A DNA stretch of 64,000 nucleotides from Thermoanaerobaculia bacterium (GCA_963715895.1 OY970284.1:4771892-4835891); one strand, 5' to 3'; shown: positions 28,419-51,420, counted from the stretch's first letter. Notes: generated from the letters alone by a model not told the origin. Program-made: numbers and translations.

Positions 28419-29645
28419 ATGAACGAGCCCTCTCTTCGCGGGAGTCTTGCATCCTTTCGCTTGCCGGATGTCCTGACCTTTCTGGCATCGACGCGGAAGA
28501 GCGGCACGCTGACGCTCACCAACGGCTCCAGCGAGGCCACCGTCTACTTCGACGCCGGCGCGGTCGTCTACGCCGGCTCGAACCAGGAGACGCTCCGCCT
28601 GGGCGCCGTCCTACTGCGCAAGAAGCACATCTCGGTCGCGCAACGCGATGCCATCGATGAGCTGATGAAGGCCGAGGGCGGCCGCTTCGGCCAGCTCGCG
28701 GTGAACCAGGGTTTGCTGACCGACGAGCAGCTCCGGGACTTTCTCAAGGTGCAGGTCTCCGAGATCCTCTACGACTGCTTCGTCTGGCCTGGCGGGACCT
28801 TCGTCTTCATCGACGGTACCGAGCTCCCTCCGTACGCGGTCACGATCTCCGTCGATCTCGCCAACCTGATCATGGAGGGGGCGCGGCGCATCGCCGAATG
28901 GGAAGAGTGCGTCCGCCTGCTCCCCGACAGCACCACCGTCTTCCGCGTCGTCTCCAACCCCGAGACGGAGAAGATCACGCTGTCGCTCGATGAGTGGAAG
29001 ATCCTCTTTCTCATCAACGGCCGGCGCACGCTCGCCGAGCTGCCGCCCGACGCCGACGACGATCCGCTCCACGTGTATCGCGTCGTCTACGGTCTCTTCG
29101 CGAACAAGCTGATCGAGGCGGTCACGCGCACGCTCTCGCCAGACGACACGGGCCGCTCCCGTCCGGCCACGGCGCTCATGGAAGATACGATGCGCCAGAA
29201 GCCGGCCACGTTCAGCGCCGACTCCACCGTCCGCGAGGTCGGCGACGACACCAACCTCCTGGTCTCGGTCGAGGCGAAACTCTCGTACAAGGACATGGTC
29301 AAGCCGACCATCGCCCAGCTCACCATCGTCAGCGGCGAGGATACGGGCCTGATGTTTCCGCTCACCGAGGCCGAGTATCTGATCGGGCGGCAAAGCGACA
29401 ATCAGATCTCGCTCGCGGACCTCGGCGTTTCCGGTCACCACGTCCGCATCTATCGCGGCCCCGAAGGCTACGCCATCGAGGATCTCAAGAGCCGCAATGG
29501 CACGTGGCTCAACGGCGCGCGCACGTTCCACGCCCTCCTCCGAACCGGCGATCAGATCCGCCTCGGCGCCACCGAGCTGCGTTACGAGGTCCTCTACGAC
29601 GGCGGGACCACGCCAGCCTTCCCGGTCGAGCCGCCGGCGTCGTAG
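28419..29645 (+). CDS. DUF4388 (PATAN-like) domain + C-terminal FHA domain protein
   Basis: N-terminal GSLASFRLPDVLTFLASTRKSGTLTL (DUF4388 signature); C-terminal FHA (YLIGRQSDNQISLADLGVSGHHVRIY...SRNGTWLNG...GDQIRLG). Confidence 0.8.
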   Translation: MNEPSLRGSLASFRLPDVLTFLASTRKSGTLTLTNGSSEATVYFDAGAVVYAGSNQETLRLGAVLLRKKHISVAQRDAIDELMKAEGGRFGQLAVNQGLLTDEQLRDFLKVQVSEILYDCFVWPGGTFVFIDGTELPPYAVTISVDLANLIMEGARRIAEWEECVRLLPDSTTVFRVVSNPETEKITLSLDEWKILFLINGRRTLAELPPDADDDPLHVYRVVYGLFANKLIEAVTRTLSPDDTGRSRPATALMEDTMRQKPATFSADSTVREVGDDTNLLVSVEAKLSYKDMVKPTIAQLTIVSGEDTGLMFPLTEAEYLIGRQSDNQISLADLGVSGHHVRIYRGPEGYAIEDLKSRNGTWLNGARTFHALLRTGDQIRLGATELRYEVLYDGGTTPAFPVEPPAS

Positions 29646-35730: not shown

Positions 35731-35973
35731 GTGAAGGCACGCATCCAGAAGTGGGGTAACAGCCTGGCTCTTCGCATCCCGAAGCCATTCGCGGAGGAAG
35801 CGAGTCTGCGTGAGGACTCTGCTGTCGATGTGACGGTTCTAAGCGGAAAGCTTGTCGTCGTCGCGATCGAGGAGCCGCAGCTAACACTGGAGGACCTCGT
35901 CGCGAAGATAACACCGAGCAACCGGCACGCCGAGGTCGAGACGGGGAAGGCCGTTGGCAACGAAGTCTGGTAG
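35731..35973 (+). CDS. MazE/AbrB-SpoVT-family antitoxin
   Basis: GTG start with AAGGAGAA RBS; MKARIQKWGNSLALRIPKPFAEE... swapped-hairpin motif typical of MazE/PemI. Confidence 0.75.
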   Translation: MKARIQKWGNSLALRIPKPFAEEASLREDSAVDVTVLSGKLVVVAIEEPQLTLEDLVAKITPSNRHAEVETGKAVGNEVW

Positions 35974-36316
35974 TGGCAACTACGTTCCCGATCGCGGGGA
36001 CCTCGTCGCGCTCACGTTTGATCCTCAGGCGGGCCATGAGCAGGCTGGCCGGCGTCCGGCGGTGGTCCTTTCGCCGGCGATCTACAACGCCAGGTCCGGT
36101 CTGGCGGTGTTCGCTCCTGTCACCAGCCAAGTCAAGGGCTATCCGTTCGAGGTGCTGATTCCGCCGGGCCTCGCGGTTGGCGGTGTGGTGCTCGCGGATC
36201 AGTTGAAGAGCTTGGATTGGCGAGCGCGCAACGTGCACTACATTGCGTCGTTGCCACCCGAGGTGCTTTCTGCGGTCCTGCAGAAGACGGGGCTGCTCCT
36301 GTCAATCCGGAGTTGA
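35954..36316 (+). CDS. MazF/PemK-family endoribonuclease toxin
   Basis: YVPDRGDLVALTFDPQAGHEQAGRRPAVVLSPAIYN... canonical MazF N-terminus; overlaps antitoxin by 20 nt. Confidence 0.8.
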   Translation: MATKSGSGNYVPDRGDLVALTFDPQAGHEQAGRRPAVVLSPAIYNARSGLAVFAPVTSQVKGYPFEVLIPPGLAVGGVVLADQLKSLDWRARNVHYIASLPPEVLSAVLQKTGLLLSIRS

Positions 36317-36460: not shown

Positions 36461-38839
36461 ATGACCTCCTTCGACCTGATCATCGTCGGTTCCGGGCCGG
36501 CGGGGCTTGCGGCGGCGTCCCACGCGCAGAGCAATGGGCTCTCCTACGCGCTGCTGGAGCGGACCGACCATCTGGCGGACACCATCGACGCCTACCAGGC
36601 CCGCAAGTACGTGATGGCCGAGCCGATGCTGATTCCGGCTCGGGGGGAGGTGCCGTTCCAGGCGGGGTCGCGCGAATCGATCCTGGCGGCGTGGGGTGGG
36701 CACGTCAAAGAGAAGAAGCTCAACGTCCTCTTCAACGCCGAGGTCAAATCCATCAAGAAAGATGCTGGGCGGTTTCAGGTCGCCACCGCGAAGGGCGACA
36801 AGTTCGACGCCGCCAACGTCATCCTCGGCATGGGGACGCAGGGAAATCCGCGCAAACTCGGCGTACCGGGCGAAGACCTTCCCCACGTCCGCTACCGGCT
36901 CGTCGATCCGGCGGAGCATCGCGACCAGGACCTCCTCGTGGTCGGTGCCGGCGACTCCGCGCTCGAAATCGCTATCGCCCTGGCTGCTGAAAACCGCGTC
37001 GGACTGATCGTCCGAGGGACGGAGATCACCCGCGCCAACGACGTCCTGATCAAGGAGGTGCTCAGCCGGCAGGCCACGGGACAGATGACCGTCTACTTCA
37101 GCGCCAGCGTGAAGCAGGTCTATCCCGGCTATGCCGACCTCACCGTGCGCGGTGACGTCACGCGCGTGGCGGCGGAGCTGATCTTCCTCAAGCTCGGGGC
37201 CGACGCGCCGCGCAAATTCTTCGAGTCGATCGGCATCACCTACAGCGGCAGCGGCAAAGACTCGCGTCCCATCCTCAGCCAGGTCCACGAGTCGAGCGTG
37301 CCCGGGCTCTTCCTCATCGGCGCCGCCAGCGGGCGCGATCTCATCAAGCTGGGGATGAATCAGGGCTACGAGGTGGTCGAGCATCTGATGGGACGCGAGG
37401 TCGAGCCGGCCGACGAGGCGGTGCTGAAAGAGCGCCTGCCGTTCTGGGAAGGGACGGTGCGCGAGCGCATCGCCTTCCTGCGCACGCGCGTGCCCCTGCT
37501 GGCCGCGGCGGACGAGCAGCAGCTCCGCGAGACCTTCCTCTCCGCGCGCGTCCGCGAGTATGCGGACGGCGAGATCATCATCCGGCAGAACGACTACACG
37601 AACGACTTCCTCATCATCGCCGCCGGCCGCGTCGAGCTGTGGAAGAAGCCGGAGAAGACAAACACCGAGATCAAGATCGTCGAGCTGACGGCCGGCAACT
37701 TCTTCGGAGAGATGAGCCTCATCTCCGGACGCCGCCGCACCGCCACGGCCCGCGCGGTCGGAGCGACCCGCTTGATCGAGATCCCCCGCAAGGCAATCCT
37801 CAAGCTCCTCGGCGCAGCGCCGAGGGCCAAGGCACTCGTCGATCAGGCCTTCCTGCTGCGCGCCTTCGGCGGCTACCTCTTCCCCGGCATCCCCGAGTCG
37901 CAGCTCGGCGAGCTGGTGGAGCTGGCGGTGGTCAACAGCCTGGCCAAGGATGCGGTGGTCTTCCAGGAGGACACTCCGGCGGATGCCTTCTATCTCATCC
38001 GCAACGGCATGGTGAAGATCTCCAAGAAGTCGGGCGAGAAAGAGGTGGTGCTGTCGTACCTCGTGGCCGGCAACTTCTTCGGCGAGGCGGCCCTTTTCTC
38101 CGACACCGACCGGACGGCCACGGTGACGACGATCTTCCCGTCCGATCTGATCAAGCTCTCCAAGCGCGACTTCAACAACTTCCTGGCCGCCCATCCCGAG
38201 CTGCGCGAGGCGCCGCTGCGCAAGCTCGAGGAGCGCCGCATCGCCTCGCTCATCGCCGACGCCACCCCCGGCTCGGGCAACATCCTCAACGATCTGATCC
38301 GCGAGGAAGTGGTGATGGGGACGCAGACGCTCATCATCGACGAGCACAAATGCATCCGCTGCGGGAACTGCATCGCCGGCTGCGAAGGGGTTCACCGGGA
38401 CGGACAGGCGCGCCTCTCTCTAACCGGGATCAAGTTCTACAACCTGCTGGCGCCGAATTCCTGCTGGCAGTGCGAGAACCCGATGTGCATGCTGGACTGC
38501 CCGCCCGACGCCATCGTGCGCGACCCGCGCGGCGAGGTGTACATCAAGAGCAATTGCATCGGCTGCGGCAACTGCGAGCGCAATTGTCCTTATGGCAACA
38601 TTTTCATGATCCATAAGGAGCCCAAGAAGACGATTTTCTCCTGGGTGGCCTCGCTGTTCGGCAAAGGCCATGAGAACGAGATCGAGCAGACCGTGGCGGT
38701 GAAGTGCGACCTCTGCCGCGAGATCTCCGGCGGGCCGGCGTGCGTGCGGAGTTGTCCAACGGGAGCGGCCATCCGGTTGACGCCGGAGGAGTATCGGTCG
38801 ACGTTGGAGGAGTTGGTGATTACGCGCGGGGAGAGGTAG
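36461..38839 (+). CDS. Multidomain redox protein: FAD/NAD(P)-binding oxidoreductase + 2x cyclic-nucleotide-binding + 4Fe-4S dicluster ferredoxin domains
   Basis: N-terminal dinucleotide-binding GxGxxG (IIVGSGPAGLAAA) and second NAD(P) site (LLVVGAGDSALEIA). Two CAP-family cNMP-binding domains (GEIIIRQND...NFFGEMSLISGRRRTATARA and KDAVVFQED...NFFGEAALFSDTDRTATV). C-terminal Cys clusters (CIRCGNCIAGCEG; CWQCENPMCMLDCPP; CIGCGNCERNCPYG; CDLCRE...CVRSCP). Confidence 0.85.
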   Translation: MTSFDLIIVGSGPAGLAAASHAQSNGLSYALLERTDHLADTIDAYQARKYVMAEPMLIPARGEVPFQAGSRESILAAWGGHVKEKKLNVLFNAEVKSIKKDAGRFQVATAKGDKFDAANVILGMGTQGNPRKLGVPGEDLPHVRYRLVDPAEHRDQDLLVVGAGDSALEIAIALAAENRVGLIVRGTEITRANDVLIKEVLSRQATGQMTVYFSASVKQVYPGYADLTVRGDVTRVAAELIFLKLGADAPRKFFESIGITYSGSGKDSRPILSQVHESSVPGLFLIGAASGRDLIKLGMNQGYEVVEHLMGREVEPADEAVLKERLPFWEGTVRERIAFLRTRVPLLAAADEQQLRETFLSARVREYADGEIIIRQNDYTNDFLIIAAGRVELWKKPEKTNTEIKIVELTAGNFFGEMSLISGRRRTATARAVGATRLIEIPRKAILKLLGAAPRAKALVDQAFLLRAFGGYLFPGIPESQLGELVELAVVNSLAKDAVVFQEDTPADAFYLIRNGMVKISKKSGEKEVVLSYLVAGNFFGEAALFSDTDRTATVTTIFPSDLIKLSKRDFNNFLAAHPELREAPLRKLEERRIASLIADATPGSGNILNDLIREEVVMGTQTLIIDEHKCIRCGNCIAGCEGVHRDGQARLSLTGIKFYNLLAPNSCWQCENPMCMLDCPPDAIVRDPRGEVYIKSNCIGCGNCERNCPYGNIFMIHKEPKKTIFSWVASLFGKGHENEIEQTVAVKCDLCREISGGPACVRSCPTGAAIRLTPEEYRSTLEELVITRGER

Positions 38840-38845
38840 GGATGC

Positions 38846-38943
38846 AATGTTGAATGTTGAATGTTCAATGTTGAATGTTGAATGGACGGGAGACGGTCGC
38901 CTCCATTCAACATTGAACATTCAACATTCAACATTCAACATTC
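38846..38943. repeat. AT-rich heptamer-repeat palindrome (about 33-bp stem)
   Basis: Left arm (GAATGTT)x5-like CAATGTTGAATGTTGAATGTTCAATGTTGAATGTTGAATGG, 16-nt spacer, right arm its reverse complement; in the gap between the multidomain redox gene and the next gene. Confidence 0.75.
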
Positions 38944-38962: not shown

Positions 38963-39796
38963 ATGCCAATAGCACGAAGCGGCGTCCTCTGGCGCCGGAT
39001 CTTCTTTCTTCTGCTCCTCGCCTTCACCGCGACCTTCATCTGGTACAAGAACCACGAATATCCGCACGGCGGCTCGCGATGGGGGTTGTTTTACGGGATC
39101 GTCGGCTTTTTCCTCTGCTATCTCCTGGCGTTCTTTGGAATCCGCAAGCGCTGGTACCGCTCGACGTTCGGCACCCTCGAACAATGGATGCAATCACACA
39201 TTTACCTCGGCATCCTGGTGCTGGTCATCCTCATTTATCACACGGGCGGACGATTTAACGACAAGATCGCCGTTGCCACGTTGATTCTGGTGGCCATTGT
39301 GGTATCGAGCGGGGTGTTGGGCGCGATTCTCTATGTGACCGTGCCGCGATTGTTAACCGAGGTTGAATCGAACCTGACGGTGGACGAGATATCGGAGCAG
39401 CTCAATCAACTCGCCAAACAGATGGCCCGTATTGCGTCGGGACGGTCGGCGCCATTTCAACGCATTTACAGCCAATTGATCCGCGAAGGCGAGCCGGGAT
39501 GGCTGGCCGGCTGGCGTCTGCTCTTCGCGCGGATGCGACGCGGTCCCGCGCCTATGGCTGGAGAGTGGACCAACCTCCTCAGCCTGGTGCAGAAGGACGA
39601 ACAGGAAGAGCTTCGTCAGCTGCTGGTCGTATCGCGGCAGCGAAAAGAGCTGCTGATCCGACTCATTTACCAGCAGCGCTACAAGAACGTCCTGGAGTTC
39701 TGGCTCTACATTCACATCCCATTCACGATTCTGCTGTTGCTGTTCGCGATCATCCACGTCGTGGCGGTGTTTTACTACGGGAGGGTCGCGTGGTGA
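38963..39796 (+). CDS. Polytopic membrane protein with two H-x13-H helices (putative di-haem b-type cytochrome)
   Basis: ATG at 38963; 5-6 TM helices, two of which carry His pairs spaced 13 residues apart (HIYLGILVLVILIYH; HIPFTILLLLFAIIH), as in bis-haem ferric-reductase/cytochrome-b-type domains. Family not recognised. Confidence 0.5.
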   Translation: MPIARSGVLWRRIFFLLLLAFTATFIWYKNHEYPHGGSRWGLFYGIVGFFLCYLLAFFGIRKRWYRSTFGTLEQWMQSHIYLGILVLVILIYHTGGRFNDKIAVATLILVAIVVSSGVLGAILYVTVPRLLTEVESNLTVDEISEQLNQLAKQMARIASGRSAPFQRIYSQLIREGEPGWLAGWRLLFARMRRGPAPMAGEWTNLLSLVQKDEQEELRQLLVVSRQRKELLIRLIYQQRYKNVLEFWLYIHIPFTILLLLFAIIHVVAVFYYGRVAW

Positions 39797-39928: not shown

Positions 39929-40112
39929 TCGAGAGCCTTCTCCCCCGCGGTTTTTTGCGGGGGAGAAGGTGCCGACAGGCGGATGAGGGGGCGCTTGGCA
40001 GGATGAGTCGCTATTTCCAGAGGAGTAACAAGGCATGCTGCTCAGCGCCCCCCTCATCCGCCTTCGGCACCTTCTCCCCCCGCAAAAAACCGCGGGGGGA
40101 GAAGGCTCTCGA
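39929..40112. repeat. Large nested inverted repeat (about 66-bp arms, about 50-bp spacer) upstream of the FHA-cytochrome gene
   Basis: Left arm TCGAGAGCCTTCTCCCCCGCGGTTTTTTGCGGGGGAGAAGGTGCCGACAGGCGGATGAGGGGGCGC; right arm its near-perfect reverse complement. Each arm also contains an internal 13-bp-stem hairpin (CCTTCTCCCCCGC ... GCGGGGGAGAAGG). Confidence 0.75.
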
Positions 40113-40199: not shown

Positions 40200-42431
40200 A
40201 TGAGTTTCGTCATCCAGCGCGCTTCGGGGCGCGGGCTGGCGCTGACGCAGGTGCGGCGCGATCTGCTCCGCATCGGGCGGGGGACGAATGCCGAGCTGCG
40301 CTCGGAGAATCCTGCCGTGGCCCTCGAGCATGCCGTCATCGAAGGCGACGCCAACGGCTTCACCGTCACCGACAAAGGGAGCATCACCGGCACGTACGTC
40401 AATCGCCGGCCGGTGGAGACGGCGCGGCTGGCCAGGGGCGACGTCATCGAGATCGGCGACCTGCGCATCGAGGTACAGGTTCTCGAGCCGGGCAAGCCGC
40501 TCTTCGTCCGCGTCAGCACGACGTCATCCGTGGCGGGGGTATTCGCCGGCGATGACGAGGAGATCGTCCAGGGCGCGGGAGCCCGCGGCGGCGCGGTCAA
40601 GGCGCGGAAGATCGACTACGCCGACGCCTTTCGTCTCAAGCGCGCCTGGCTGACCAAGCTCTCGCTCATCGCCATCCTTCTGATCGTCGCGTTCCTTGTT
40701 GTGGCCGAGGTCACCAAACCGGAGAAACAGAACGCGTTCATGCCGGGAGGGATCTCGTCGGCGCACGCGCGGGCGAAAGATCCCAGAACCGGCGAGTTGA
40801 TCGGCAACAACTGCCGCGCATGTCACAACCCGTGGCGCGGCGTTTCCGACACGAGCTGCACCGAATGTCACGGCAGACTGCCGCATGCGGAGAACCAGAT
40901 CGGCGCTCCGGCATGCGCCGACTGCCACTCCGAGCATCGCGGCTTCGCCAAACTGGCCGCGGCCGCGGACGCCACCTGCATCTCCTGCCACGGCGACATC
41001 GCCGCTCATGTCAAGGATCCGGCCGCCCTGGCGACGAAACCGAAAGAGATCCTCCACATCCTCTCCTTCGGCGGCCAACATCCCGACTTCACGCCGCGGA
41101 GCGATCCCGACACCCTTCTCTTCAACCACGCCCTCCACCTCAAGGCGGGTGGCGTGTTCAACGGAGAAGGACGCCGCGAAGAACTTCAGTGCACGCAATG
41201 CCACAAGCTCGTCGAGACGAAGGGGAAAGTCGATCCCGCTCCGATCAGCTTCAAGAGCCACTGCCAGCGCTGCCACAAACTGACGTTCGATCCGCGCTTC
41301 CCTAACGTCGAAGTGCCGCATGGAGGCGATCCCGCCGACGTCTACGGCTTCGTCCTGGCCACCTACGCCGGCAACCGCGACATCATCGGCAAGAGTCCGG
41401 AAGAGGTCCGGCGCATTCTGACGCTGCGGCCGCCGTCGACTCCCGACCAGGGAGCGGTGCTCAACGCCGAGCAGGTCGTCAAGGTCAAATGCAGCAAGTG
41501 CCACATCCTCCAGCGCTCCGGCACCCGTCTGGCCGCGAAGACGCCCGAGATCCCGGCGCGCTGGTTCCTGAAGGCGAAATTCACGCACACGCCGCACCGC
41601 ACCCTTTCGTGCGAGTCGTGTCACGAAAATGTCCGTCAGAGCACCAATACGTCAGACGTGCTGATGCCTGTGCGCAAAGATTGCACCGGATGCCACGGCG
41701 GGCAGTCGGCCAAAACATCCAGTAGCTGCGCGACCTGTCATGAGTATCATGAGCATTCGAAGGTCTTGTTGACGAAATTGGGGGCTTCCTCCGGGAAAGG
41801 AACGCCTCTTGCCCCGAAGGAACATGGAGGCGGATCCCGGATGATCGAGACGGTTCTTCTGTGGGCCATCGTCCTGTTACTGCTGGTGGTGCTCGTGCCG
41901 GCAGGGTTGGCGCTGGTCCAGCGTATCCGGGCCGGCGAGCTCGATCGCGCCGCGGGCGTGCGCGCCGCGGCCGCGCAGCAGGCGCCGACAGCGAAGATTC
42001 CGCCGCTGCAGGGTTCCGAGACGCCGTCGGCTCCGCCGCCCGCCGCGCCGGCGAAGGCGCCGGACATCACGAAGATGGCTCCCGTCCCCACCGCCCCGGC
42101 GGAAGGATCGACGGTGATGGTGCAGTGGTATGGCCTCCTGCAGTGCACCGGCGGCGCGCTGGAAGGACAGCGCTTCGTCATCGAAGAAGGCGGCCTCTAC
42201 ATCGGCCGCGATCCGGCCATGTCGCAGGTGGCCATCTCGGACAAACGCATCTCCAAACGGCACGTGCGGATCATTCCGCGTGATGGTAAGGTAATGGCCA
42301 TCGATCAGAACTCGACGAACGGTACGTTCCTCGGCAAGGCCGGCGGCGAGCGGATCACCGAGGTACAGCTCAAACGGGGAGACGTTCTCGTCCTGGCCGA
42401 CAACGCGGCCACGTTTGTGTACCAGATATAG
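40200..42431 (+). CDS. FHA - TM - decahaem c-type cytochrome - TM - FHA protein
   Basis: 743 aa. N-terminal FHA (LLRIGRGTNAELRS...GSITGTYVN...GDVIEIGDLRI), TM1 (LSLIAILLIVAFLVVAEV), ten CxxCH motifs (CRACH, CTECH, CADCH, CISCH, CTQCH, CQRCH, CSKCH, CESCH, CTGCH, CATCH), TM2 (VLLWAIVLLLLVVLVPAGLALV), Pro/Ala linker, C-terminal FHA (LYIGRDPAMSQVAISDKRISKRHVRI...STNGTFL...GDVLVLAD). Confidence 0.85.
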   Translation: MSFVIQRASGRGLALTQVRRDLLRIGRGTNAELRSENPAVALEHAVIEGDANGFTVTDKGSITGTYVNRRPVETARLARGDVIEIGDLRIEVQVLEPGKPLFVRVSTTSSVAGVFAGDDEEIVQGAGARGGAVKARKIDYADAFRLKRAWLTKLSLIAILLIVAFLVVAEVTKPEKQNAFMPGGISSAHARAKDPRTGELIGNNCRACHNPWRGVSDTSCTECHGRLPHAENQIGAPACADCHSEHRGFAKLAAAADATCISCHGDIAAHVKDPAALATKPKEILHILSFGGQHPDFTPRSDPDTLLFNHALHLKAGGVFNGEGRREELQCTQCHKLVETKGKVDPAPISFKSHCQRCHKLTFDPRFPNVEVPHGGDPADVYGFVLATYAGNRDIIGKSPEEVRRILTLRPPSTPDQGAVLNAEQVVKVKCSKCHILQRSGTRLAAKTPEIPARWFLKAKFTHTPHRTLSCESCHENVRQSTNTSDVLMPVRKDCTGCHGGQSAKTSSSCATCHEYHEHSKVLLTKLGASSGKGTPLAPKEHGGGSRMIETVLLWAIVLLLLVVLVPAGLALVQRIRAGELDRAAGVRAAAAQQAPTAKIPPLQGSETPSAPPPAAPAKAPDITKMAPVPTAPAEGSTVMVQWYGLLQCTGGALEGQRFVIEEGGLYIGRDPAMSQVAISDKRISKRHVRIIPRDGKVMAIDQNSTNGTFLGKAGGERITEVQLKRGDVLVLADNAATFVYQI

Positions 42432-42454: not shown

Positions 42455-44278
42455 ATGCGCTCCGGTGTCACGTCGATCCTCATGATTCTCGTCGCCACGG
42501 CCTGCCTGGCGCAGGGCCGCACGATCGGACGGCGCGACAGGGCGTTGGCGACCACTCCCGATCCCCCTTCGTGCGCCATCCCTCTGAACGCGGCCCTTCC
42601 CGACGTCTGCACCGACGGCGCGATCGGCCTCGGGACGCCGGAGCCATTCAGCGCCATTTCGAAAGCCGAGGCGATTGAGATCGTCAAGGCGGCGGCGACG
42701 GCGCTTGCCGGCGACACCGCCACCATCGCCATCGTCGACCGTACCGGCCGTCCGGTGGCGTTGTTCCGGCAAGCCAACGCCAACCCTGCCAACGATGACG
42801 TCGCCCTCGGCGTGGCCCGCACCGCCGCCTTCTTCAGCAACAGCCAGGCGCCGCTTTCCTCGCGCACGGTGCGCACCATTTCTCAAGTGCACTTCCCACC
42901 AGGCGTGGTCAACACGCCGGTCGGCGCTCTGTACGGGATCGAACAGTCGAACCGCGGATGCGATGTAAACGTGCTGTGGAACACGAATCAGTGCGTTCCG
43001 CGAGCGAAGTCGATCGGACAGTTCGCCGCCTTCACCGGCGCGCCGAAGCCCTGCCCGATCACTGATCGCTCCGGCTGCGGCCCCGGTCTCATCACCGGGA
43101 AAATCCTGCCGGACGATGCGCCGTATCCGCAGGAAGTCGATACCCGTCCCGTCAACGCCGGCGGCATCCCGCTCTACCGCGTTCTCGACACCAGTGCCGT
43201 CAAGCAGGGGATCGCCCGCACCGGAAAGCTGCTCGGCGCGATCGGCGTCACCGGCATCCCCGGCGATCCACAGCTCGCCGAATTCGCCGCCGTTACCGGC
43301 GCCTTTGGTCCGCTCAACGCCGGCGTGGCGCCGATCATCCCGCTGCCGAACTATCCGCTGCCGCAGCCGCAGAACGTCTTCATCGACGGAATCCGCCTGC
43401 CGTTCATCGGGCCGGATCAACAGCTGAAGTTCAATGCAGACGGACTGCCGATCGGTCTCCAGCAACTGCCCGGCACCTCGCCAGGTTCAGCCGCGGGATT
43501 TACCGCGGGCACCTTCGTCTACGGACCCTTTAACGGCGGCTGCCCGCCGAACGGCTATCTCGTCGGTCCCAACGCCAGCGTGCTGCCGGGCGGGCTGACG
43601 GCATCGGCGGTCGACGCCATCGTGCAGCGCGCCGTCGCGGCGGCCAGGCGCACCCGCGCTCAGGTGCGCCTCCCACTCAACAGCTACACCCGCATGATCA
43701 TCTCCGTAGCCGACACCGACGGAACGATCCTGGCGCACTACCGGATGCCCGACTCCCTCTTCGACGCCGTCGACGTCGTCCTGGCGAAAGCGCGCAACGT
43801 CGCCTACGTCAACGGCAGCGATCCGAACGTCCGCAACGATCTTCCCGGCATTCCCGCCGGCTATTGGGTAACCGGGCGCACGATCGGTTTCGGTGCGCAG
43901 CCGCTCTATCCGCCGGGCATCGATTCGCAGGCATTCGATGTCGGTCCCGGGCCGTGGTACTCCACTCTCTTTCTGCCAAACATCGCCAAGCCGTGCAGCC
44001 AGGGATCGCAGGCGCCGAACGCCAACCAGAACGGCGTCACATTCTTCGGCGGATCCACGCCGCTCGTCGACAACGGCAAACTCGTCGGTGGTCTCGGCGT
44101 CAGCGGCGACGGTATCGAGCAGGACGACTATGTCACCTACCTCGGCGCGGGCCCTCTCCTTCCGCCGACCGACAAATGGGCCGATCAGCTCAATGTCAAC
44201 GGCGCCCGTCTGCCGATGTTCAAGTTCCCCCGGAGCCCCGAAGGAGTCACGGAGTGCGGGGGGAAGCCGTGTTCGTAG
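42455..44278 (+). CDS. Secreted tandem GlcG/HbpS-like (DUF336) haem-binding protein
   Basis: Signal peptide; two DUF336-like modules (SKAEAIEIVKAAATALAGDTATIAIVDRTGRPVALFRQ... and SAVDAIVQRAVAAARRTRAQ...MIISVADTDGTILAHY...GGSTPLVDNGKLVGGLGVSGDGIEQDD). Confidence 0.7.
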   Translation: MRSGVTSILMILVATACLAQGRTIGRRDRALATTPDPPSCAIPLNAALPDVCTDGAIGLGTPEPFSAISKAEAIEIVKAAATALAGDTATIAIVDRTGRPVALFRQANANPANDDVALGVARTAAFFSNSQAPLSSRTVRTISQVHFPPGVVNTPVGALYGIEQSNRGCDVNVLWNTNQCVPRAKSIGQFAAFTGAPKPCPITDRSGCGPGLITGKILPDDAPYPQEVDTRPVNAGGIPLYRVLDTSAVKQGIARTGKLLGAIGVTGIPGDPQLAEFAAVTGAFGPLNAGVAPIIPLPNYPLPQPQNVFIDGIRLPFIGPDQQLKFNADGLPIGLQQLPGTSPGSAAGFTAGTFVYGPFNGGCPPNGYLVGPNASVLPGGLTASAVDAIVQRAVAAARRTRAQVRLPLNSYTRMIISVADTDGTILAHYRMPDSLFDAVDVVLAKARNVAYVNGSDPNVRNDLPGIPAGYWVTGRTIGFGAQPLYPPGIDSQAFDVGPGPWYSTLFLPNIAKPCSQGSQAPNANQNGVTFFGGSTPLVDNGKLVGGLGVSGDGIEQDDYVTYLGAGPLLPPTDKWADQLNVNGARLPMFKFPRSPEGVTECGGKPCS

Positions 44279-44290: not shown

Positions 44291-44466
44291 CGCTACGTAG
44301 GTCGGACTCACGTAGGTCGGACTCACGTAGGTCGGACTCACGTAGGTCGGACTCTCTAGTCCGACCGGCGCTTGGGAGATCGGTAATTGATAACCCGCCT
44401 GTAGTTCAGAGCCGCGCAAGAACCGGTCGGACTAGAGAGTCCGACCTACGTGAGTCCGACCTACGT
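44291..44466. repeat. Composite tandem + inverted repeat element (MITE-like)
   Basis: Four tandem copies of ACGTAGGTCGGACTC (44295-44354), palindrome GGTCGGACTCTCTAGTCCGACC, about 57-bp spacer, second palindrome GGTCGGACTAGAGAGTCCGACC and two inverted copies GAGTCCGACCTACGT ending at the OMP start codon. Confidence 0.75.
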
Positions 44467-46454
44467 TTGGCTTCGCTCGTCTTTCTCATCCTCCTGTTCG
44501 CAACCTCGGCATTCGCGCAACCCGCAACCGCGCCCATCACCATCAACGACGACCAGCCCGTTTACGCCGAGGGTGTGCCGTTCCTGCTCACGGGAACATC
44601 GCTGCCCGGCGCTATCGTCACCATCGCCATCGAGAAATCGGGCAACGGCCAGACCACAGCCGATGCTTCGGGATATTGGACATTGATCTGGACACCGCCG
44701 GTAAAAACCGGCACGTGGACCATCACCGCCAGCTCGGGGGGCGTGACGGCGACGCAGCTTCTGCGCGTACAGATTCAGGGCAACGTACAGCGGCAGCCGA
44801 TCGTCGAGCCGGTCGTGCGCTACGGGACGCCGGAGATTCCGCATCCCGAGGCGTATCAGGAGATGACGGATCGGTGGCGCATCACGCCGCCGCCGTACGA
44901 GCTGACCGAGAAATCGAAAGGCCGCCCCATCGGCGACAAAGGCGCCTCGATCGATCCGTACAACCAGAACCTGATCAAAGGCGACCTGCCGATCTTCGGG
45001 AAGGACTGGTTCCTCGACTTCACCGGCATCAGCGACACCCTCGCCGAGTCGCGCACGCTGCCGACGCCGTCGGGCGTCAGCGCCGTCAAGCCGACCTCGA
45101 TCACCGTCTTCGGCAAAGACAACCAGAACCTCTTCAACGAGAACCTGATCGCCTCCTTCGACCTCTTCCAGGGCGACACCGCCTTCAAGCCCATCACGCA
45201 GCGCTTCAAGATCACGCTGATCGAAAACATCAACTACGTACACCTGCGCGAGAACGCTCTCGTCAAGCCTGACGTCCGCCGCGGAACGTCGCGCACCGAT
45301 GGGTATCTCTCGCTGCAGGAGATCTTCTACGAGCGAAAGATCCGCGATGTCTCGCCGAACTACGACTTCATGTCATTCCGCGTCGGATCGCAGCCCTTCA
45401 ACAGCGACTTCCGCGGGTTCATCTTCAACGACACGAACCTTGGCGCCCGCCTTTTCGGCAACTTCGCGTCCAATCGCTATCAATACAACGTCGCCGTGTT
45501 CGACCGGCTGGAAAAAGACACCAACTCCGGCCTCAACACAATGGAGCTCCGCGATCAGCAGGTCGGCATCGCCAATATCTACCTGCAGGACTTCCTCGTC
45601 CGCGGCTACACCCAGGAGTTCAGCGTCCACTATCTACGCGACGGCGCCACCTTTCACTACGACCGCAACGGCATCCTGGTGCGCCCTGCGCCGGTTGGGG
45701 TCTTCACGCCGCACGAGATCCGCGCCACGTACATCGGCGAGGCGGGCCTGGGACACATCGGCCGCTTCAACGTCGACCACGCCATCTACTACGTCTTCGG
45801 CACCGACGAGTTGAATCCGATCGCCGGCCCCGATCCGAATCTAAAGAACGGGAACGCCGTGAAGATCGGAGCCGGCAGCGCGGCCCTCGAGGTCTCCTAC
45901 GACCACGATTGGTATCGGCCGCGGCTGGCCCTTTTCTACGCCTCGGGCGACCGCAATCCGCGCGACCGCAACGCCCGCGGCTTCGACTCCATCTTCGACA
46001 GTCCTAATTTCGCCGGCGGCGGTTTCTCTTCTTCAACCGCCTCGGCATCCGCCTTCCGACGACCGGCGTCGCGCTCGTCGAGCGCGGCTCGCTCCTGACC
46101 AGCCTGCGCAGCTCGAAGGATGAAGGGCAGCCGAACTACGTCAATCCCGGCGTGCAGATCGCCAGCACGGGAATCGATGTCAACGTCACGCCGCGGCTGA
46201 CGGCAATCTTCACCGGCAACTACATCCGCTTCGACGCCGTCGAGTCGGTCGAGGCCATCCTCTTCCAGGGCAACATCCACAAGACGCTCGGCACCGATCT
46301 CTCCGCCGGCCTTCGCTACCGGCCGCTCCTCAACCAGAACATCGTCATCGTCGGCGGCACCGCCGTCCTCCTCCCCGGCCGAGGATTCAAAGACATCTAT
46401 GAAAAAGACCGGCCGCTCTACCACGTCTTCACGAACGTAATCCTGACCTTCTGA
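44467..46454 (+). pseudogene. Outer-membrane beta-barrel (porin-like) protein, interrupted by a -1 frameshift at about 46021-46025
   Basis: TTG start; signal peptide (ASLVFLILLFATSAFAQP); alternating-hydrophobic beta-strand composition; C-terminus ...HVFTNVILTF ends in Phe (OMP sorting signature). The reading frame switches at GGCGGCGGTTTCTC (3-T run): frame 1 ends at 46098, frame 0 continues as FLFFNRLGIRLP... to 46454. This may be a sequencing error rather than a true pseudogene. Confidence 0.6.
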
Positions 46455-49400
46455 TGAAACGGATAACGATCGCTCTCGCCGCAGTGCTCATCGTCACGCT
46501 GGCCGTGATCAGAATCCGCGCGCAGACATCCCCCGACCTCCCGCCGCTGATGCGCCAGACACAGGCCGAGGCCGATGCGAAGAGTGCCGGATGCCTCTCG
46601 TGTCATAACGGGATCGAACCGATGCACGCCTCGGCGGCGGTGAAGCTGGCCTGCACCGACTGCCACGGCGGCGACGGTTCGGCGCGGACGAAAGAGGCCG
46701 CGCATGTCAAGCCGCTCCATCCCGAGATCTGGAAGACCTCGGCCAATCCGCAGCGCAGCTACACCGCCCTTCTGAAAGAGACGCCGGAGTTCGTGAAGTT
46801 CGTCAATCCAGGCGACCTTCGCGTCTCGCAGGAGACCTGCGGCGGCTGCCATCAGCGCCAGGTCAACGCTGTACCGCGCAGCACCATGACGACGTCCGCC
46901 GTCTTCTGGGCCGCCGTCAGCTACGCCAACGGTCTCGTCAGCCGCAAGCAGGGACTCCTCGGCGAGAGCTACAACCGCGCCGGCAACGCCACGTCCATCA
47001 AACCGGCAACGCCGCCGACACCCGATCAGATCGCCAAAGGCGCGCTGCCGATCCTCGTCCCACTGCCGCGCTGGGAGGTCTTTCAGCCGGCCGAGTACTT
47101 CCGCGCTTTCGAGCGAGGCGGCATCTCGGGAAGCAGCTCCTTCCCGGATATCGGCAATCCCAGCCCCGAGGGGGAAGCGGGTAAGCCTGACATCCGCCTC
47201 GGCAACCGCGGACGCGGTACCGGCCTGCGCATCTCGCCCGCGCTCATCAATCTCAACAAGACGCGGCTCAACGATCCCCATCTCTCGTTCCTCGGCACGA
47301 ACGATCATCCAGGCGACTACCGCTCCTCCGGATGCACGGGATGCCACGTCGTCTACGCCAACGATCGCGATCCATTGCATTCCTCTAGCTACGCTCAGTA
47401 CGGCAACACCGGCCTCTCCATCACCGGCGACAAATCGATCCCGAAGAATGAGCAGGGACACCCGCTACGCCACCAGTTCACGCGCGCCGTACCAACGAGC
47501 CAGTGCATGACGTGTCACATGCATCAGCCGAACTCCTTCGTGAACACGTATCTCGGCTACACGATGTGGGACTACGAGTCAGACGCCGAGCTGCTCTGGC
47601 CGAAGAAACAGAAGTATCCGACCGAGGCCGAGAAGCGCGCCTCGCTCGACGCAAATCCAGAAGGCGCTGCGCCGAGGGGATTGTGGAGCGATGAGAAGTT
47701 CCTCGAAAACGTCTCCGGCCTCAATTCGCAGGCGAAGAACACCCAGTTCGCCGACTACCACGGGCACGGCTGGAACTTCATGGCCGTCTACAAACGCGAC
47801 CACAAAGGCAACCTGCTCGACGCCGACGGCAGAATCGTTTCGTTCGATGATCCCGCCAAGTTCAGCAAAGCCGTTCATCTGCAGGACATCCACCTCGAGA
47901 AAGGGATGCACTGCGCCGACTGCCACTTCTCGCAGGACGAGCACGGCAACGGCCAGATCTACGCCGAGTACGGCAACAACATCGAGATCGAATGCCAGGA
48001 CTGCCACGGCAACGTCGACGCCTACACCAACCTGCGCACCTCCGGCCCCGCCGCGCCGCCGGGAGGGACCGATCTTCGGCTCGGAACCACACCGTTCGGT
48101 CAACGCCGCTTCATCTGGGTCAACGGCAGGCTGTATCAGAGGTCGATGCTGAACCCCGGCATGCAGTGGGAAGTCATCCAGGTCAAAGACAGCATCACGC
48201 CCGGTAACGCGCATTACAACGAGCGCTCCGCGTATGCGAAGACGATCCAGCGCGACGGTACGACCTGGGGAACGTCATCCAGCGCGAATTTCGCCCACGC
48301 CGACGCCAGGATGACTTGCTATGCGTGCCACACCTCGTGGATGACCTCATGCTCCGGCTGCCATCTGCCGCAGGAGCAGAACGCCAAGACCGAGGTCCAT
48401 CACTACGAGGGGGGCGAGACGAGAAACTACGCCTCGTACAACCCCCAGGTCATCCGCACCGACGTCTTCATGCTTGGTGTCAACGGCACCACCAAAGGGC
48501 ATCGCCTAGCGCCCGTTCGGTCATCGTCCGCGCTCGTGATCAGCTCGACGAACGCATTGCGCGACCGCATCTACATCCAGCAGCCACCCATCTCCTCGCC
48601 CGGATATTCGAGCCAGGCCTTCAACGCCCACGTCCCGCACACCGTCCGCACCCGCGAAACGCAGGGGTGCGGAAGCTGCCACATCACCAAAGAGAACGAC
48701 AACAACGCCTGGCTCGCCCAGCTCCTGCTGCAAGGAACCAACTTCGTCAACTTCGTCGGCCGCTACGCCTACGTCGCGGAAGGAAAGGGCGGGTTCGAGG
48801 GCGTCTGCGTAACCGAGTGGGACGAGCCGCAGGCGGTCATCGGATCGTCGCTGCACAAGATCGTCTATCCCGACTACTACGCGAAGCACCAGGCCAACAA
48901 GCTGGAGCTGCAGACCGCGCACGAACATCACGGCGACTCGCGCTCACTGCAGATGCGCGGTGAGTTCATCTACAGCGCGAACGGCGAGGAAGGCTTCAGC
49001 GTCTACGACATCGCCAACATCGACAACAAAGACTTCTCCGAGCGCATCGTCTCCCAGCCGGTCTCCCCGCTAGGCCAGCGTACCTTCGTGAAGACGAAGT
49101 TCGCCTCGGCCGTGGCGCTGCCGACGACGATGCCGGTGGCCCCCACGCGCCAGACGCAGTTCATCAAGGAAAACGAAGAGCAGACGATTCACCCGCTGTA
49201 CAAATACGTCTACGTCGCCGACCGCGAAGAGGGGCTGATCCTCATCGACGTGACGACGCTGTCAGACGCCAATCCGTCGAACAACTTCCTCACGCGCGCC
49301 GTGACCTTCAATCCCGGCGGCGCGCTCAACGGTGCCCGATCGATCTACGTCGCCGGACGCTGGGTCTTCATCGGCGCAGCGGGTGGCTTGGTCATCGTCG

Positions 49401-50065
49401 ACGTCGACAAACCGCTCGAGCCGAGGATTGTCGCCACGATTCCTGAATTGAAGGATGCCACCGGCATCGGCGTGCAGTTCCGCTATGCCTTTGTCACCAC
49501 GCCGGAAGGATTGGCCAGCGTCGACATCACCGACCCGTCGCATCCGCGCGTGGCCGCGCGCCTGGCCGTTCCCGACGCCAGAAGCGTCTATGTCGCTCGC
49601 ACCTACGCCTACATCGGCGGAGGCGCCCGCGGGATGGTCATCGTCGACGTCGAGCACCCGGAGAAGCCGGCAATCCTCCCGTGGAGCGACGAGCTCCCGC
49701 ATGACGCCAACGACGTGAAAGTGGCCTCGACCAACGCATCGACCTTCGCGTACGTCGCCGACGGCAAGTACGGTCTCAAGGTCTACCAGTTCCTCTCCCC
49801 CGAATGGACGCCCGGATACGCCGGCTTCAGCCCGCGTCCCGAACCGCGCCTCGTCGCCACCCGCCGCACGCACGGCCCGGCGCTGGCGGTCTCGAAGGGC
49901 CTCGACCGCGACCGCGCCGTCGACGAAGGCGGCAATCAGGTTTCGATCTTCAACCGCATCGGCGCGCGCCCGATGACGCTCCCCGAGATGCAGCGGCTCT
50001 ACCTCCGCGACGGATCGCTCTACACCGTCAGCGAGACGCCGACTACGAAGCCGGTCACGAGGTGA
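46454..50065 (+). CDS. Secreted multihaem (about 10 CxxCH) c-type cytochrome fused to C-terminal LVIVD-repeat beta-propeller
   Basis: ATG overlaps OMP stop (ATGA); signal peptide. CxxCH motifs: CLSCH, CTDCH, CGGCH, CTGCH, CMTCH, CADCH, CQDCH, CYACH, CSGCH, CGSCH. C-terminal about 350 aa contain LVIVD-type repeats (LILIDVT, LVIVDVD, MVIVDVE, YAYIGGG). Confidence 0.85.
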   Translation: MKRITIALAAVLIVTLAVIRIRAQTSPDLPPLMRQTQAEADAKSAGCLSCHNGIEPMHASAAVKLACTDCHGGDGSARTKEAAHVKPLHPEIWKTSANPQRSYTALLKETPEFVKFVNPGDLRVSQETCGGCHQRQVNAVPRSTMTTSAVFWAAVSYANGLVSRKQGLLGESYNRAGNATSIKPATPPTPDQIAKGALPILVPLPRWEVFQPAEYFRAFERGGISGSSSFPDIGNPSPEGEAGKPDIRLGNRGRGTGLRISPALINLNKTRLNDPHLSFLGTNDHPGDYRSSGCTGCHVVYANDRDPLHSSSYAQYGNTGLSITGDKSIPKNEQGHPLRHQFTRAVPTSQCMTCHMHQPNSFVNTYLGYTMWDYESDAELLWPKKQKYPTEAEKRASLDANPEGAAPRGLWSDEKFLENVSGLNSQAKNTQFADYHGHGWNFMAVYKRDHKGNLLDADGRIVSFDDPAKFSKAVHLQDIHLEKGMHCADCHFSQDEHGNGQIYAEYGNNIEIECQDCHGNVDAYTNLRTSGPAAPPGGTDLRLGTTPFGQRRFIWVNGRLYQRSMLNPGMQWEVIQVKDSITPGNAHYNERSAYAKTIQRDGTTWGTSSSANFAHADARMTCYACHTSWMTSCSGCHLPQEQNAKTEVHHYEGGETRNYASYNPQVIRTDVFMLGVNGTTKGHRLAPVRSSSALVISSTNALRDRIYIQQPPISSPGYSSQAFNAHVPHTVRTRETQGCGSCHITKENDNNAWLAQLLLQGTNFVNFVGRYAYVAEGKGGFEGVCVTEWDEPQAVIGSSLHKIVYPDYYAKHQANKLELQTAHEHHGDSRSLQMRGEFIYSANGEEGFSVYDIANIDNKDFSERIVSQPVSPLGQRTFVKTKFASAVALPTTMPVAPTRQTQFIKENEEQTIHPLYKYVYVADREEGLILIDVTTLSDANPSNNFLTRAVTFNPGGALNGARSIYVAGRWVFIGAAGGLVIVDVDKPLEPRIVATIPELKDATGIGVQFRYAFVTTPEGLASVDITDPSHPRVAARLAVPDARSVYVARTYAYIGGGARGMVIVDVEHPEKPAILPWSDELPHDANDVKVASTNASTFAYVADGKYGLKVYQFLSPEWTPGYAGFSPRPEPRLVATRRTHGPALAVSKGLDRDRAVDEGGNQVSIFNRIGARPMTLPEMQRLYLRDGSLYTVSETPTTKPVTR

Positions 50066-51420
50066 TGACGATGAAGCGAATGAAACGAATGATGATTCTC
50101 TTCGTGCTGATGACCGCGGCCGCTGCGATCGCGCAGCAACCGAGCAACCCGGCAACCCAGCAACCTCAAACCCCAGCCCCGATGCAACCACCGTCTGTTC
50201 CCAACCACTACGACGGCGTCGCCTCCTGCGCCAACTCCGGCTGCCACGGCTCGACCCAGCCGCTCAACGCCGCGCACGTCCTGCAGAACGAGTACTACAC
50301 GTGGCTGAGCAAAGATCGCCACGCGCAGGCCTACAACGTCCTCTTCAGCGACCGCTCGGCGCGCGTCGCGCGCAACATGCGCCTCAAAGGAAAGGCTTAT
50401 CAGGAGACCGTCTGCCTCGATTGTCACACTACGAACGTCCCCGCGCGCCTGGTCTCCGGCAAAATGGACGTCGAAGACGGCGTCCAGTGCGAAGCCTGCC
50501 ATGGCCCCGCCAGCGGCTGGCGCGCCGAGCACACGCAGGCCGGCTGGACGCACGAGCAGTCGGTGGCGCGCGGGATGACCGACCTCCGAAACCTCCCCGT
50601 CCGTGCCTCGGGCTGCCTCTCCTGTCACCTCGGCAACGACAAGAAGGAAGTCGATCACGAGCTGATCGCCTCCGGCCATCCCATCCTCGCCTTCGAGCTC
50701 GACAACTACACCGAGACGATGCCGCCCCACTGGCGCCGAGACAAAGACGCCGTGGCCGCCGACACCCACGGCGCGCGTGCCTTCGCCGTCGGCCAGGCCG
50801 CCGCATTCAGCCAATCGCTCGACAATCTGGCCCGCCACGCCCGCGGCGATAAGTGGCCGGAGTTCTCCGACATGAGCTGCATCAACTGCCACCATTCGCT
50901 CGAGGGCAGCGGATGGCGTCAGGAGCGCGGCTGGCCCGGCCGGGCCGGCCTCCCTGCGTGGAGCCCGCAGCATTGGGCCGTCCTCCGTCTCCTGGTCGGG
51001 CGCGCCAATCCTTCCGCACGCGCGACGCTCGACAACGCCGTGGAGATCCTCGCCGTACGCGTCTCACGGATGAACGACTCCAACGGCGTTCTGCAGGCAG
51101 CCAACGAAGCCCGCCGCACCATCGACAGCGTCACGCCGCAGATCGCCGCCCTGAGCTGGCGCGATGACGATGTCCGCTCCATGATGCGCACTATCGCCGG
51201 CGACACCGACTTCCTCCTCAATTCCGACGTCCACTCCGCCGAGCAGACCGCGCTGGCGCTGCAGAGCCTTGCCTCCGCCCTCACCCGAAGCAACCCGCGC
51301 CTGCTCAAGAGCCCGATGACCGAAGCGATCGATGCTCTCTTCGAAGAGGTCAAGAGCCGCGAACGCTACGAACCGTCACGATTCGTGCAGAAGCTGGCGG
51401 CGGTGCGGGCGGCGTTGTAG
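50065..51420 (+). CDS. Secreted pentahaem c-type cytochrome (4x CxxCH + 1x CX4CH)
   Basis: ATG overlapping upstream stop (TGATGA); signal peptide (MKRMMILFVLMTAAAAIAQQ); haem motifs CANSGCH (CX4CH), CLDCH, CEACH, CLSCH, CINCH. Confidence 0.8.
   Translation: MTMKRMKRMMILFVLMTAAAAIAQQPSNPATQQPQTPAPMQPPSVPNHYDGVASCANSGCHGSTQPLNAAHVLQNEYYTWLSKDRHAQAYNVLFSDRSARVARNMRLKGKAYQETVCLDCHTTNVPARLVSGKMDVEDGVQCEACHGPASGWRAEHTQAGWTHEQSVARGMTDLRNLPVRASGCLSCHLGNDKKEVDHELIASGHPILAFELDNYTETMPPHWRRDKDAVAADTHGARAFAVGQAAAFSQSLDNLARHARGDKWPEFSDMSCINCHHSLEGSGWRQERGWPGRAGLPAWSPQHWAVLRLLVGRANPSARATLDNAVEILAVRVSRMNDSNGVLQAANEARRTIDSVTPQIAALSWRDDDVRSMMRTIAGDTDFLLNSDVHSAEQTALALQSLASALTRSNPRLLKSPMTEAIDALFEEVKSRERYEPSRFVQKLAAVRAAL

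Follow-up and report, generated by a model that had tools for sequence, protein, structure and literature searches.

The 64,000-nucleotide stretch of DNA from a Thermoanaerobaculia bacterium analysed here (GCA_963715895.1 OY970284.1:4771892-4835891; the window) carries on its plus strand, at 40200..42431, an open reading frame (ORF) with an ATG start which specifies a 743 amino acid (aa) protein combining FHA domains with a multihaem c-type cytochrome. This protein, its neighbouring genes and the electron-transfer system which they may form are described below. Pfam and motif scans gave the domain order FHA, transmembrane helix (TM), 10 CxxCH motifs, TM, FHA. The same order had been claimed in an earlier reading of the sequence by a model (the original prediction), and the Pfam matches, the CxxCH count and the hydrophobic segments all confirm it.

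The decahaem cytochrome and its FHA domains

The Pfam FHA model PF00498 matched the 743-aa protein at both termini (whole-protein score 93.4 bits, cut-off 20.7); the best stretch covers aa 667-732 at the C-terminus and the other lies at about aa 1-107. Between them, the Cytochrome_C7 and Cytochrom_c3_2 models scored above threshold, and the MtrC domain II/IV model remained below it (27.5 bits, cut-off 30). NCBIfam gave partial, sub-threshold matches to the FHA proteins FhaB, OdhI, GltG and TagH, and no match to its named cytochrome families.

TM1 (40653..40715, plus strand; about aa 152-172) follows a conserved juxtamembrane motif, KIDYxDAFRLKR, and TM2 (41844..41918, plus strand; aa 549-573) coincides with a helix at residues 546-580 in the AlphaFold2 (AF2) model. 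Since the flanks on the FHA sides are basic (RLKRAWLTK ahead of TM1 and QRIRAGELDR behind TM2), and since c-type haem is attached outside the cytoplasm, both FHA domains are predicted to be cytoplasmic and the haem domain periplasmic, which agrees with the topology put forward originally.

A word-indexed search returned 508 relatives, the 120 listed being 53-100% identical. Using HMMER against 1.84 billion cluster representatives (50% identity), at least 409 clusters were found at E<1e-30. Architecture types were assigned to the best 150 of these: about 9 have the form seen in the window (type A; FHA, TM, 10 haems, TM, FHA), about 90 contain FHA, TM and 10 haems (type B), and about 22 contain TM and 10 haems with no FHA (type C), those outside the three types being fragments. 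The C-terminal FHA domain is confined to type A. Named members of type B come from Tahibacter aquaticus, Stenotrophobium, Gammaproteobacteria, Candidatus Binatia and Acidobacteriota. A genome scan with the single 743-aa protein reached close relatives only, the closest loci being in metagenome-assembled genomes (MAGs) of Thermoanaerobaculia (Acidobacteriota). The architecture is less singular than the original prediction took it to be: it is common, with at least 409 clusters, those relatives that carry a database name have a generic one (most often 'FHA domain-containing protein'), and proteins joining FHA to multihaem domains appear in two papers on Gallionellaceae, discussed below.

The predicted periplasmic domain (40743..41753, plus strand) has its ten CxxCH motifs at aa 205, 220, 239, 260, 331, 355, 431, 471, 495 and 510. 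When the 743-aa sequence was shuffled 2000 times, the mean number of such motifs was 0.02 and the maximum one. Exactly ten were present in 120/120 listed homologues, and all ten are invariant in an alignment of 29 haem domains which includes all three types and extends down to 22% identity. Ten further histidines are invariant or nearly so in this alignment (H189, 229, 246, 294, 310, 313, 374, 463, 466 and 517), a number that would just suffice for each of the ten haems to have two His ligands (bis-His ligation). Ligation of this type is typical of electron-transfer haems. The motif PGGxSxxH (G183...H189) is invariant and stands right behind TM1; we therefore place the first haem at the membrane surface.

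With its CxxCH motifs, conserved distal histidines and location on the exported side, the domain has the features of a multihaem c-type cytochrome, the haem itself being predicted from sequence. It does not fall into the NapC/NirT family (Cytochrom_NNT), for which the 743-aa protein gave no Pfam match at E<=0.1 and none in NCBIfam, and its ten haems and two TMs depart from the tetrahaem, single N-terminal TM layout of that group. Likewise the DmsE/MtrA model of NCBIfam gave no match, and a protein with inner-membrane anchors falls outside MtrA/DmsE, whose decahaem cytochromes are soluble in the periplasm and inserted in a porin. Foldseek, queried with the AF2 model of the whole cytochrome, retrieved FHA structures only and no nameable structural relative of the haem domain.

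The N-terminal FHA domain (40200..40520, plus strand; aa 1-107; AF2 predicted local distance difference test, pLDDT, about 80-92) keeps G26, R27 and H44, and has Ala41 in place of the hallmark Ser and Thr63 in place of Asn. In the C-terminal domain (42120..42431, plus strand; aa 641-743; pLDDT about 85-94) the hallmarks G669, R670, S685, H688 and N707 are all present. The family repeats this pattern. Among 260 distinct N-terminal sequences the Gly, Arg and His are found in 100%, 98% and 99%, respectively, the Ser position being occupied by Ala in 69% and by Ser in 15%, and the Asn position by Thr in 72% and by Asn in 2%. Among 135 distinct C-terminal sequences each of the five hallmarks is found in 100% (135/135). 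The N-terminal domain, which also matches the YscD-type model PF16697, is the ancestral, widespread one; it appears to have an FHA fold of non-canonical type for which binding of phosphothreonine (pThr) is doubtful. A link of the C-terminal domain to pThr signalling is credible. The closest sequence matches of the FHA domains are GarA, OdhI, Rv1747 and DgcB. Foldseek matched the C-terminal domain to FHA domains of GarA, FhaA, OdhI and DgcB, and FHA-1 of Rv1747 also ranks among the closest structures; the C-terminal domain superposes on the FHA domains of GarA and FhaA.

About 20 residues ahead of the C-terminal FHA domain is a conserved threonine island, PDITKMAPV (T624; 42060..42086, plus strand), set in a linker that is otherwise hypervariable, Pro/Ala-rich and disordered (AF2 pLDDT <40). 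Of 132 distinct sequences of the two-FHA form, 106 have the motif [DE]-x-T-[RKQ]-[ML]-A, and T624 is a candidate phospho-acceptor and FHA ligand. The phospho-dependent regulation originally suggested for this protein thus keeps part of its basis: the C-terminal FHA domain is canonical, and genes for another FHA protein and a kinase are linked in relatives (below), whereas the N-terminal domain is without the Ser and Asn hallmarks.

Partner genes and conservation of the gene set

The original prediction, correct on domain order, had not connected the cytochrome to its operon partners, two electron-transfer genes upstream on the same strand which change its likeliest identity; it had also missed a third FHA protein at 28419-29645.

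The first partner gene (36461..38839, plus strand) codes for a predicted cytoplasmic flavo-Fe-S subunit of 792 aa, characterized by Pfam, NCBIfam, PDB relatives and alignment. It possesses a TrxR/YpdA-like FAD and NAD(P)H domain with invariant glycine motifs and no redox Cys pair, two cyclic nucleotide monophosphate (cNMP)-binding domains whose phosphate-binding cassettes (FGE...RRR.AT and GE.AL...R[TS]ATV) are conserved, and a HycB/HydN-like polyferredoxin domain in which 16 Cys are invariant and make up four [4Fe-4S] motifs.

The second (38963..39796, plus strand) codes for a 277-aa protein with five predicted TMs (5-TM protein). On the AF2 helices H79 and H93 lie on TM3 and H251 and H265 on TM5, giving two H-x13-H pairs, and the long loop at about aa 128-245 would face the cytoplasm. 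The four histidines were found in 70/70 distinct homologues, down to 19% identity, among which just 22 positions are at least 90% conserved; in 18 diverse members there are 12 invariant columns, the four histidines among them. Four conserved histidines on two TM helices at 13-14-residue spacing agree with the motif of two-haem cytochromes b, and the protein is probably a di-haem b cytochrome. The window copy itself gave no Pfam match above threshold, and neither a curated threshold nor a fold assigns it to the two-haem b superfamily. Its relatives gave sub-threshold matches to DUF4405 (9/18), Ni_hydr_CYTB, the prokaryotic cytochrome b561 (5/18), and Ferric_reduct (4/18), three families which we take to form one two-haem cytochrome clan. 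When a profile of the 5-TM family was compared with the sequences in PDB, the matches were no more than coiled-coil noise arising in the cytoplasmic loop.

The conservation of this gene set was mapped in 97 loci, drawn from related genomes and from metagenomes, the latter scanned with an alignment of 7 sequences as the query. The 5-TM gene adjoins the cytochrome gene in 80 of the 97, the remainder including contig ends, and a cytoplasmic polyferredoxin protein is encoded in every locus where the surroundings of these two genes are visible. Where the partner could be seen, it was the flavoprotein-cNMP-Fer4 subunit for type A (14/14) and type B (7/7). For type C it was, in 17/19 cases, a NuoG-like 2Fe-2S/4Fe-4S protein with three cNMP domains and the same polyferredoxin; the exceptions, loci L023 and L035, keep the flavoprotein partner. 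cNMP-binding domains are found on the cytoplasmic subunit in every version of the family examined (types A, B and C). A swap of the input module, with the cNMP domains, polyferredoxin, b-type and decahaem proteins kept, is what would be expected of a transmembrane path with a cytoplasmic entry. Because the FHA-less members of the family retain the partner genes, the core machine would appear to work without FHA. An idea that the FHA domain is a tether replacing a membrane anchor on the partner was rejected, since the partners of FHA-less cytochromes are also without predicted TMs; L023 and L035, FHA-less and yet with a flavoprotein partner, contradict it as well.

Downstream of the cytochrome gene four further genes follow on the plus strand. 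The first (42455..44278) codes for a secreted HbpS-like protein of 607 aa with an N-terminal signal sequence and, from Pfam, two PF03928 domains; its PDB matches were short stretches of small HbpS/GlcG-family proteins only and suggested no function. Next (44467..46454) is an outer-membrane beta-barrel-like protein of about 660 aa with a signal peptide, an Ig-like N-terminal domain and the C-terminus ...NVILTF, followed by a secreted LVIVD protein of 1203 aa (46454..50065) which contains 10 CxxCH motifs and LVIVD beta-propeller repeats, and for which a PDB search found no relative. The last (50065..51420) codes for a c554-like cytochrome which has a signal peptide and 4 CxxCH motifs. The HbpS-like gene lies directly downstream of the cytochrome gene in 17/18 type A, 14/26 type B and 1/38 type C loci. 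In loci with at least 6 kb visible downstream, the outer-membrane protein is present in 15/15 type A, 7/8 type B and 7/12 type C cases, the LVIVD decahaem protein in 15/15, 7/8 and 8/12, and the c554-like cytochrome in 13/15, 8/8 and 9/12, respectively.

A reduced version of the system was found in Tahibacter aquaticus, a cultured aerobic gammaproteobacterium (L099, 6558-11683), and is a bare core with no outer-membrane genes which comprises the flavoprotein-cNMP-Fer4 subunit, the 5-TM protein and a cytochrome with a degenerate FHA domain. A distant core in a Planctomycetota MAG (L016, 7318-11692) consists of a TM-anchored Fer4 and flavoprotein fusion without cNMP domains, a 433-aa homologue of the 5-TM protein in which both H-x13-H pairs are kept, and a TM-anchored cytochrome with 20 CxxCH motifs and no FHA.

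The third FHA protein (28419..29645, plus strand; 408 aa) was identified by Pfam as a DUF4388 (PatA_N/PATAN)-FHA protein and has a canonical FHA domain (GR...SGHH...RNGT). In relatives its gene immediately precedes that for the oxidoreductase; in the window, unrelated genes (TPR, purH, DUF5694 and MazEF-like) spanning about 6.8 kb stand between the two. It is linked in 11/14 type A loci and a soluble Hanks kinase (HRDISSDN, DLG motif) in 5/14, and neither in any of the 34 type B and C loci; the type A loci form one related lineage, so that these co-occurrences are not independent and count at the lineage level. The original prediction had stated that the window holds no Hanks-type kinase or PP2C phosphatase, and it was right: tblastn with the kinase neighbouring related clusters gave a best E-value of 4, and Pfam scans of about 45 large window ORFs found neither Pkinase nor PP2C.

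A proposed electron conduit and its alternatives

From domain content, gene linkage and topology, we propose, with a probability of roughly 0.55, that ORF 40200..42431 encodes the inner-membrane/periplasmic c-type subunit of a conserved electron conduit which crosses the cell envelope and is controlled by a second messenger. In the cytoplasmic flavoprotein, electrons would pass from NAD(P)H to FAD and on to the four [4Fe-4S] clusters, the cluster domain docking on the cytoplasmic face of the 5-TM protein. Two stacked b-haems, bound by H79/H251 on the inner side and H93/H265 on the outer side, would then carry them across the membrane to the membrane-proximal first c-haem at the PGGxSxxH motif after TM1, from where the ten bis-His haems would relay them into the periplasm. 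In this lineage the path may continue to the c554-like tetrahaem protein, the HbpS-like protein, the outer-membrane barrel and the 10-haem LVIVD protein. Flow would be outward, as in NOX or ferric reductases; we favour this direction since electrons leaving NAD(P)H would then run downhill, with the membrane potential assisting them.

Control might be exerted in up to three layers. In the first, binding of cNMP would gate the cytoplasmic subunit. In the second, the non-canonical N-terminal FHA domain would probably be a phospho-independent docking or regulatory module. The third, limited to the two-FHA lineage, would have the canonical C-terminal FHA domain work with the soluble Hanks kinase and the DUF4388-FHA protein. 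The switch itself is the least certain step: the kinase may phosphorylate T624, or a threonine on a partner, and the C-terminal FHA domain may bind the pThr in cis or in trans and so switch how the conduit assembles or how active it is, a mode of control seen in GarA/OdhI, Rv1747 and DgcB.

In its fullest form the proposal is of a previously unrecognised class of gated conduit, a split NOX-like NAD(P)H oxidase whose electrons would reach the cell surface by way of Fe-S clusters, two b-haems and over 20 c-haems. It would be switched by cNMP on the cytoplasmic subunit and, in the two-FHA lineage, by a second switch, a linker threonine phosphorylated by the Hanks kinase and read by the C-terminal FHA domain of the cytochrome itself. 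Put so fully it is tentative, and the odds are against it. If true, it would be the first post-translational pThr control of a respiratory-type multihaem cytochrome.

Several observations weigh against the conduit. AF2 modelled the haem domain poorly (pLDDT 36-80), the outer-membrane barrel gene is frameshifted in the window by a 1-nt deletion near 46028, and a hairpin-rich spacer of 400 nt separates the 5-TM and cytochrome genes. There is no kinase or phosphatase in the window, and a kinase is seen in only 5/14 related loci. The correlations between FHA domains and partners are largely lineage-level and have exceptions in the FHA-less L023 and L035 with their flavoprotein partner. Flow might run the other way: Fe(II)-oxidising Gallionellaceae, for which uptake has been proposed, have the family too. 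The 5-TM protein may have a quinone site.

This last point leads to the alternative that survives best, although we consider it unlikely, namely a quinone-linked module in which electrons move between the quinone pool and the 5-TM di-haem protein (compare NarI, FdnI, CybB, CymA and NrfH) and the decahaem protein links quinol to the periplasm, the flavo-Fe-S subunit being an auxiliary or alternative donor. The 5-TM protein does have weak profile similarity to the prokaryotic cytochrome b561 and to DUF4405, families which include quinone-reactive proteins, and a quinone link is proposed in a preprint on Ferrigenium (bioRxiv 10.64898/2026.01.22.701106). Against this, the cytochrome has no NapC/NirT-family match, and the polyferredoxin found in every visible locus is hard to explain if the b-haems end at quinone.

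A redox sensor or transducer, in which the decahaem domain senses the environment and signals outside-in through two TMs to the FHA domains, is suggested by the receptor-like layout of a TM-bracketed periplasmic domain with cytoplasmic interaction modules, and by the signalling proteins (Hanks kinase and DUF4388-FHA) that neighbour the two-FHA form. However, the same cytochrome domain keeps its Fe-S and 5-TM partners when it has one TM and one FHA, or no FHA, and the conserved function therefore needs neither two TMs nor FHA. The ten bis-His haems, together with the four clusters of the ferredoxin domain, are also wire-like, and other multihaem proteins and an outer-membrane barrel are co-conserved. 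We regard a sensor as quite unlikely.

The electrons might also flow inward, with extracellular or periplasmic donors such as Fe(II) feeding the multihaem chain, the b-haems and the Fe-S clusters and reducing NAD(P)+. Multihaem wires are reversible in principle, and members of the family are known from Gallionellaceae that oxidise Fe(II) (27/87 genomes; PMC9900912, Table 1) and from Ferrigenium. Such uptake would, however, be doubly uphill, from the positive to the negative side and up to the potential of NAD(P)+, with no energy-coupling subunit, and the module stands alone in the aerobic heterotroph Tahibacter aquaticus and occurs also in soil Acidobacteriota, which makes it improbable. Least probable of all is that both FHA domains are phospho-independent scaffolds, as in YscD/EscD of type III secretion systems, holding partners at the membrane with no kinase input: the N-terminal domain, without its Ser and Asn hallmarks, does match PF16697, and neither the window nor most related loci show a kinase, but the C-terminal hallmarks are complete in 135/135 sequences, this domain occurs only where the DUF4388-FHA gene and in some loci the kinase are linked, and the notion of FHA as an anchor substitute failed because soluble partners are predicted for the FHA-less cytochromes as well.

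Related systems and the wider window

Among described systems, the closest relatives are in Gallionellaceae. A pangenome of this family lists a 'Forkhead-associated protein' with 10 CxxCH motifs (cluster 403) in 27/87 iron oxidisers (PMC9900912, Table 1), and the 'NHC' cluster of Ferrigenium straubiae encodes an FHA-nonahaem cytochrome, a 5-TM protein and a [4Fe-4S] protein (bioRxiv 10.64898/2026.01.22.701106, section 6.3.2), a trio expressed under all conditions tested in that study. The Ferrigenium preprint states the combination of FHA and multihaem domains to be previously unreported and assigns no function. As in type B, these proteins have a cytoplasmic FHA domain, one TM and a periplasmic domain of 9-10 haems, with 5-TM and [4Fe-4S] neighbours, a match of described architecture and gene neighbourhood rather than of sequence. 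The window protein, from Thermoanaerobaculia, differs in its second TM and its second, canonical FHA domain. In those papers (PMC9900912; bioRxiv 10.64898/2026.01.22.701106) the 5-TM protein is called non-redox, no function is given, and cNMP domains and downstream genes are unmentioned. The two-FHA form is thus new, and the family itself had already been sighted. What is added here is the di-haem b candidate, the universality of the cNMP domains, the module swap in FHA-less forms, the outer-membrane and multihaem partners, the split between the two FHA domains and the linkage to a kinase.

In overall plan the window system resembles Tmc and Hmc of sulfate reducers, and NarGHI and FdnGHI, in which a path runs through a periplasmic multihaem c-type, a membrane b-type and a cytoplasmic Fe-S protein and a four-cluster protein stands beside a di-haem b. 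The shared elements are the multihaem c, membrane b and cytoplasmic Fe-S proteins and the four-cluster domain beside the di-haem b. In contrast, there is no detectable sequence relationship, the subunit in the window has NAD(P)H/FAD and cNMP domains, and the cytochrome c is membrane-anchored and bears FHA domains. NOX, ferric reductases (FRD) and MsrQ have two stacked b-haems whose His ligands are paired on two TMs at a distance of about 13 residues, and the proposed path from NAD(P)H through flavin and two b-haems to an acceptor outside the membrane would be like theirs. It differs in being spread over separate polypeptides, in the four Fe-S clusters interposed and in its 5 TMs; no homology to them was detected, and Ferric_reduct matches are weak (4/18). 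CymA, NrfH, ImcH and CbcL are inner-membrane multihaem c-type cytochromes which feed periplasmic or extracellular chains. They share with the window protein their anchoring in the inner membrane, whereas it has ten haems, no NapC/NirT match, FHA domains and a link to a flavo-Fe-S protein rather than obviously to quinol.

For the FHA domains, the parallels are Rv1747 (an ABC transporter that has two FHA domains in the cytoplasm), GarA/OdhI and the Bdellovibrio DgcB, in which FHA regulates a membrane or metabolic protein through pThr bound in a disordered segment of that protein or of a partner. Here the cargo is instead a multihaem cytochrome, and the FHA domains stand at opposite ends around a periplasmic domain, one of them without the Ser and Asn hallmarks.

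To our knowledge, regulation of extracellular and periplasmic electron transfer has been described almost wholly at the level of transcription. With cNMP and FHA domains on electron-carrying subunits, fast post-translational gating of a conduit becomes testable, in a system found in Acidobacteriota, Gammaproteobacteria and Binatia and, from the literature, probably in Gallionellaceae. It would add a route from NAD(P)H to periplasmic multihaem proteins that need not use the quinone pool, and the 5-TM protein, earlier dismissed as non-redox, is a candidate for a new family of di-haem b cytochromes. The bare three-gene core of Tahibacter aquaticus offers a tractable experimental model.

Several spacers of the cluster contain repeats. 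Between the oxidoreductase and 5-TM genes (38846-38943) are tandem arrays of the heptamers AATGTTG (5.6 copies) and CATTCAA (5.7 copies) in inverted orientation, which form a 46-nt hairpin, 91% complementary, with a 5-nt loop. The 400-nt spacer before the cytochrome gene contains an inverted repeat (39929-40112) with 38-nt arms 108 nt apart, each arm a GC-rich hairpin; the arm hairpin at 39936-39969 has no second copy within the window. In one related locus (L001) the 5-TM and cytochrome genes overlap. After the HbpS-like gene, the 15-mer ACGTAGGTCGGACTC occurs four times in tandem (44295-44354), and two copies of the reverse complement of ACGTAGGTCGGACTC (44437-44466) end at the start of the outer-membrane barrel gene, an inverted design shared with the heptamer hairpin at 38846-38943.

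The deletion in the barrel gene lies in a CT-rich run, which reads TTTCT-CTTC here and CTTCTCCTTC in the 92%-identical orthologue of L004, and the last 100 codons are in another frame (46152-46454). Either this is a real pseudogene or the frameshift is a long-read assembly error.

A search of the whole window against Rfam gave no RNA family, and a promoter and terminator scan gave none above background. Within the block of about 6.8 kb upstream of the oxidoreductase gene, ORFs for a MazE/AbrB-like antitoxin and a MazF/PemK-like toxin were recognised by eye at 35731-36316, and a 21-bp tandem repeat of 10.7 copies (94% matches) lies downstream of purH at 34401-34626. Downstream of the cluster are genes for a DHOR-type di-haem oxidoreductase (53775-55301) and for a 1266-aa PAS/GAF-GGDEF-EAL protein (58184-61984).

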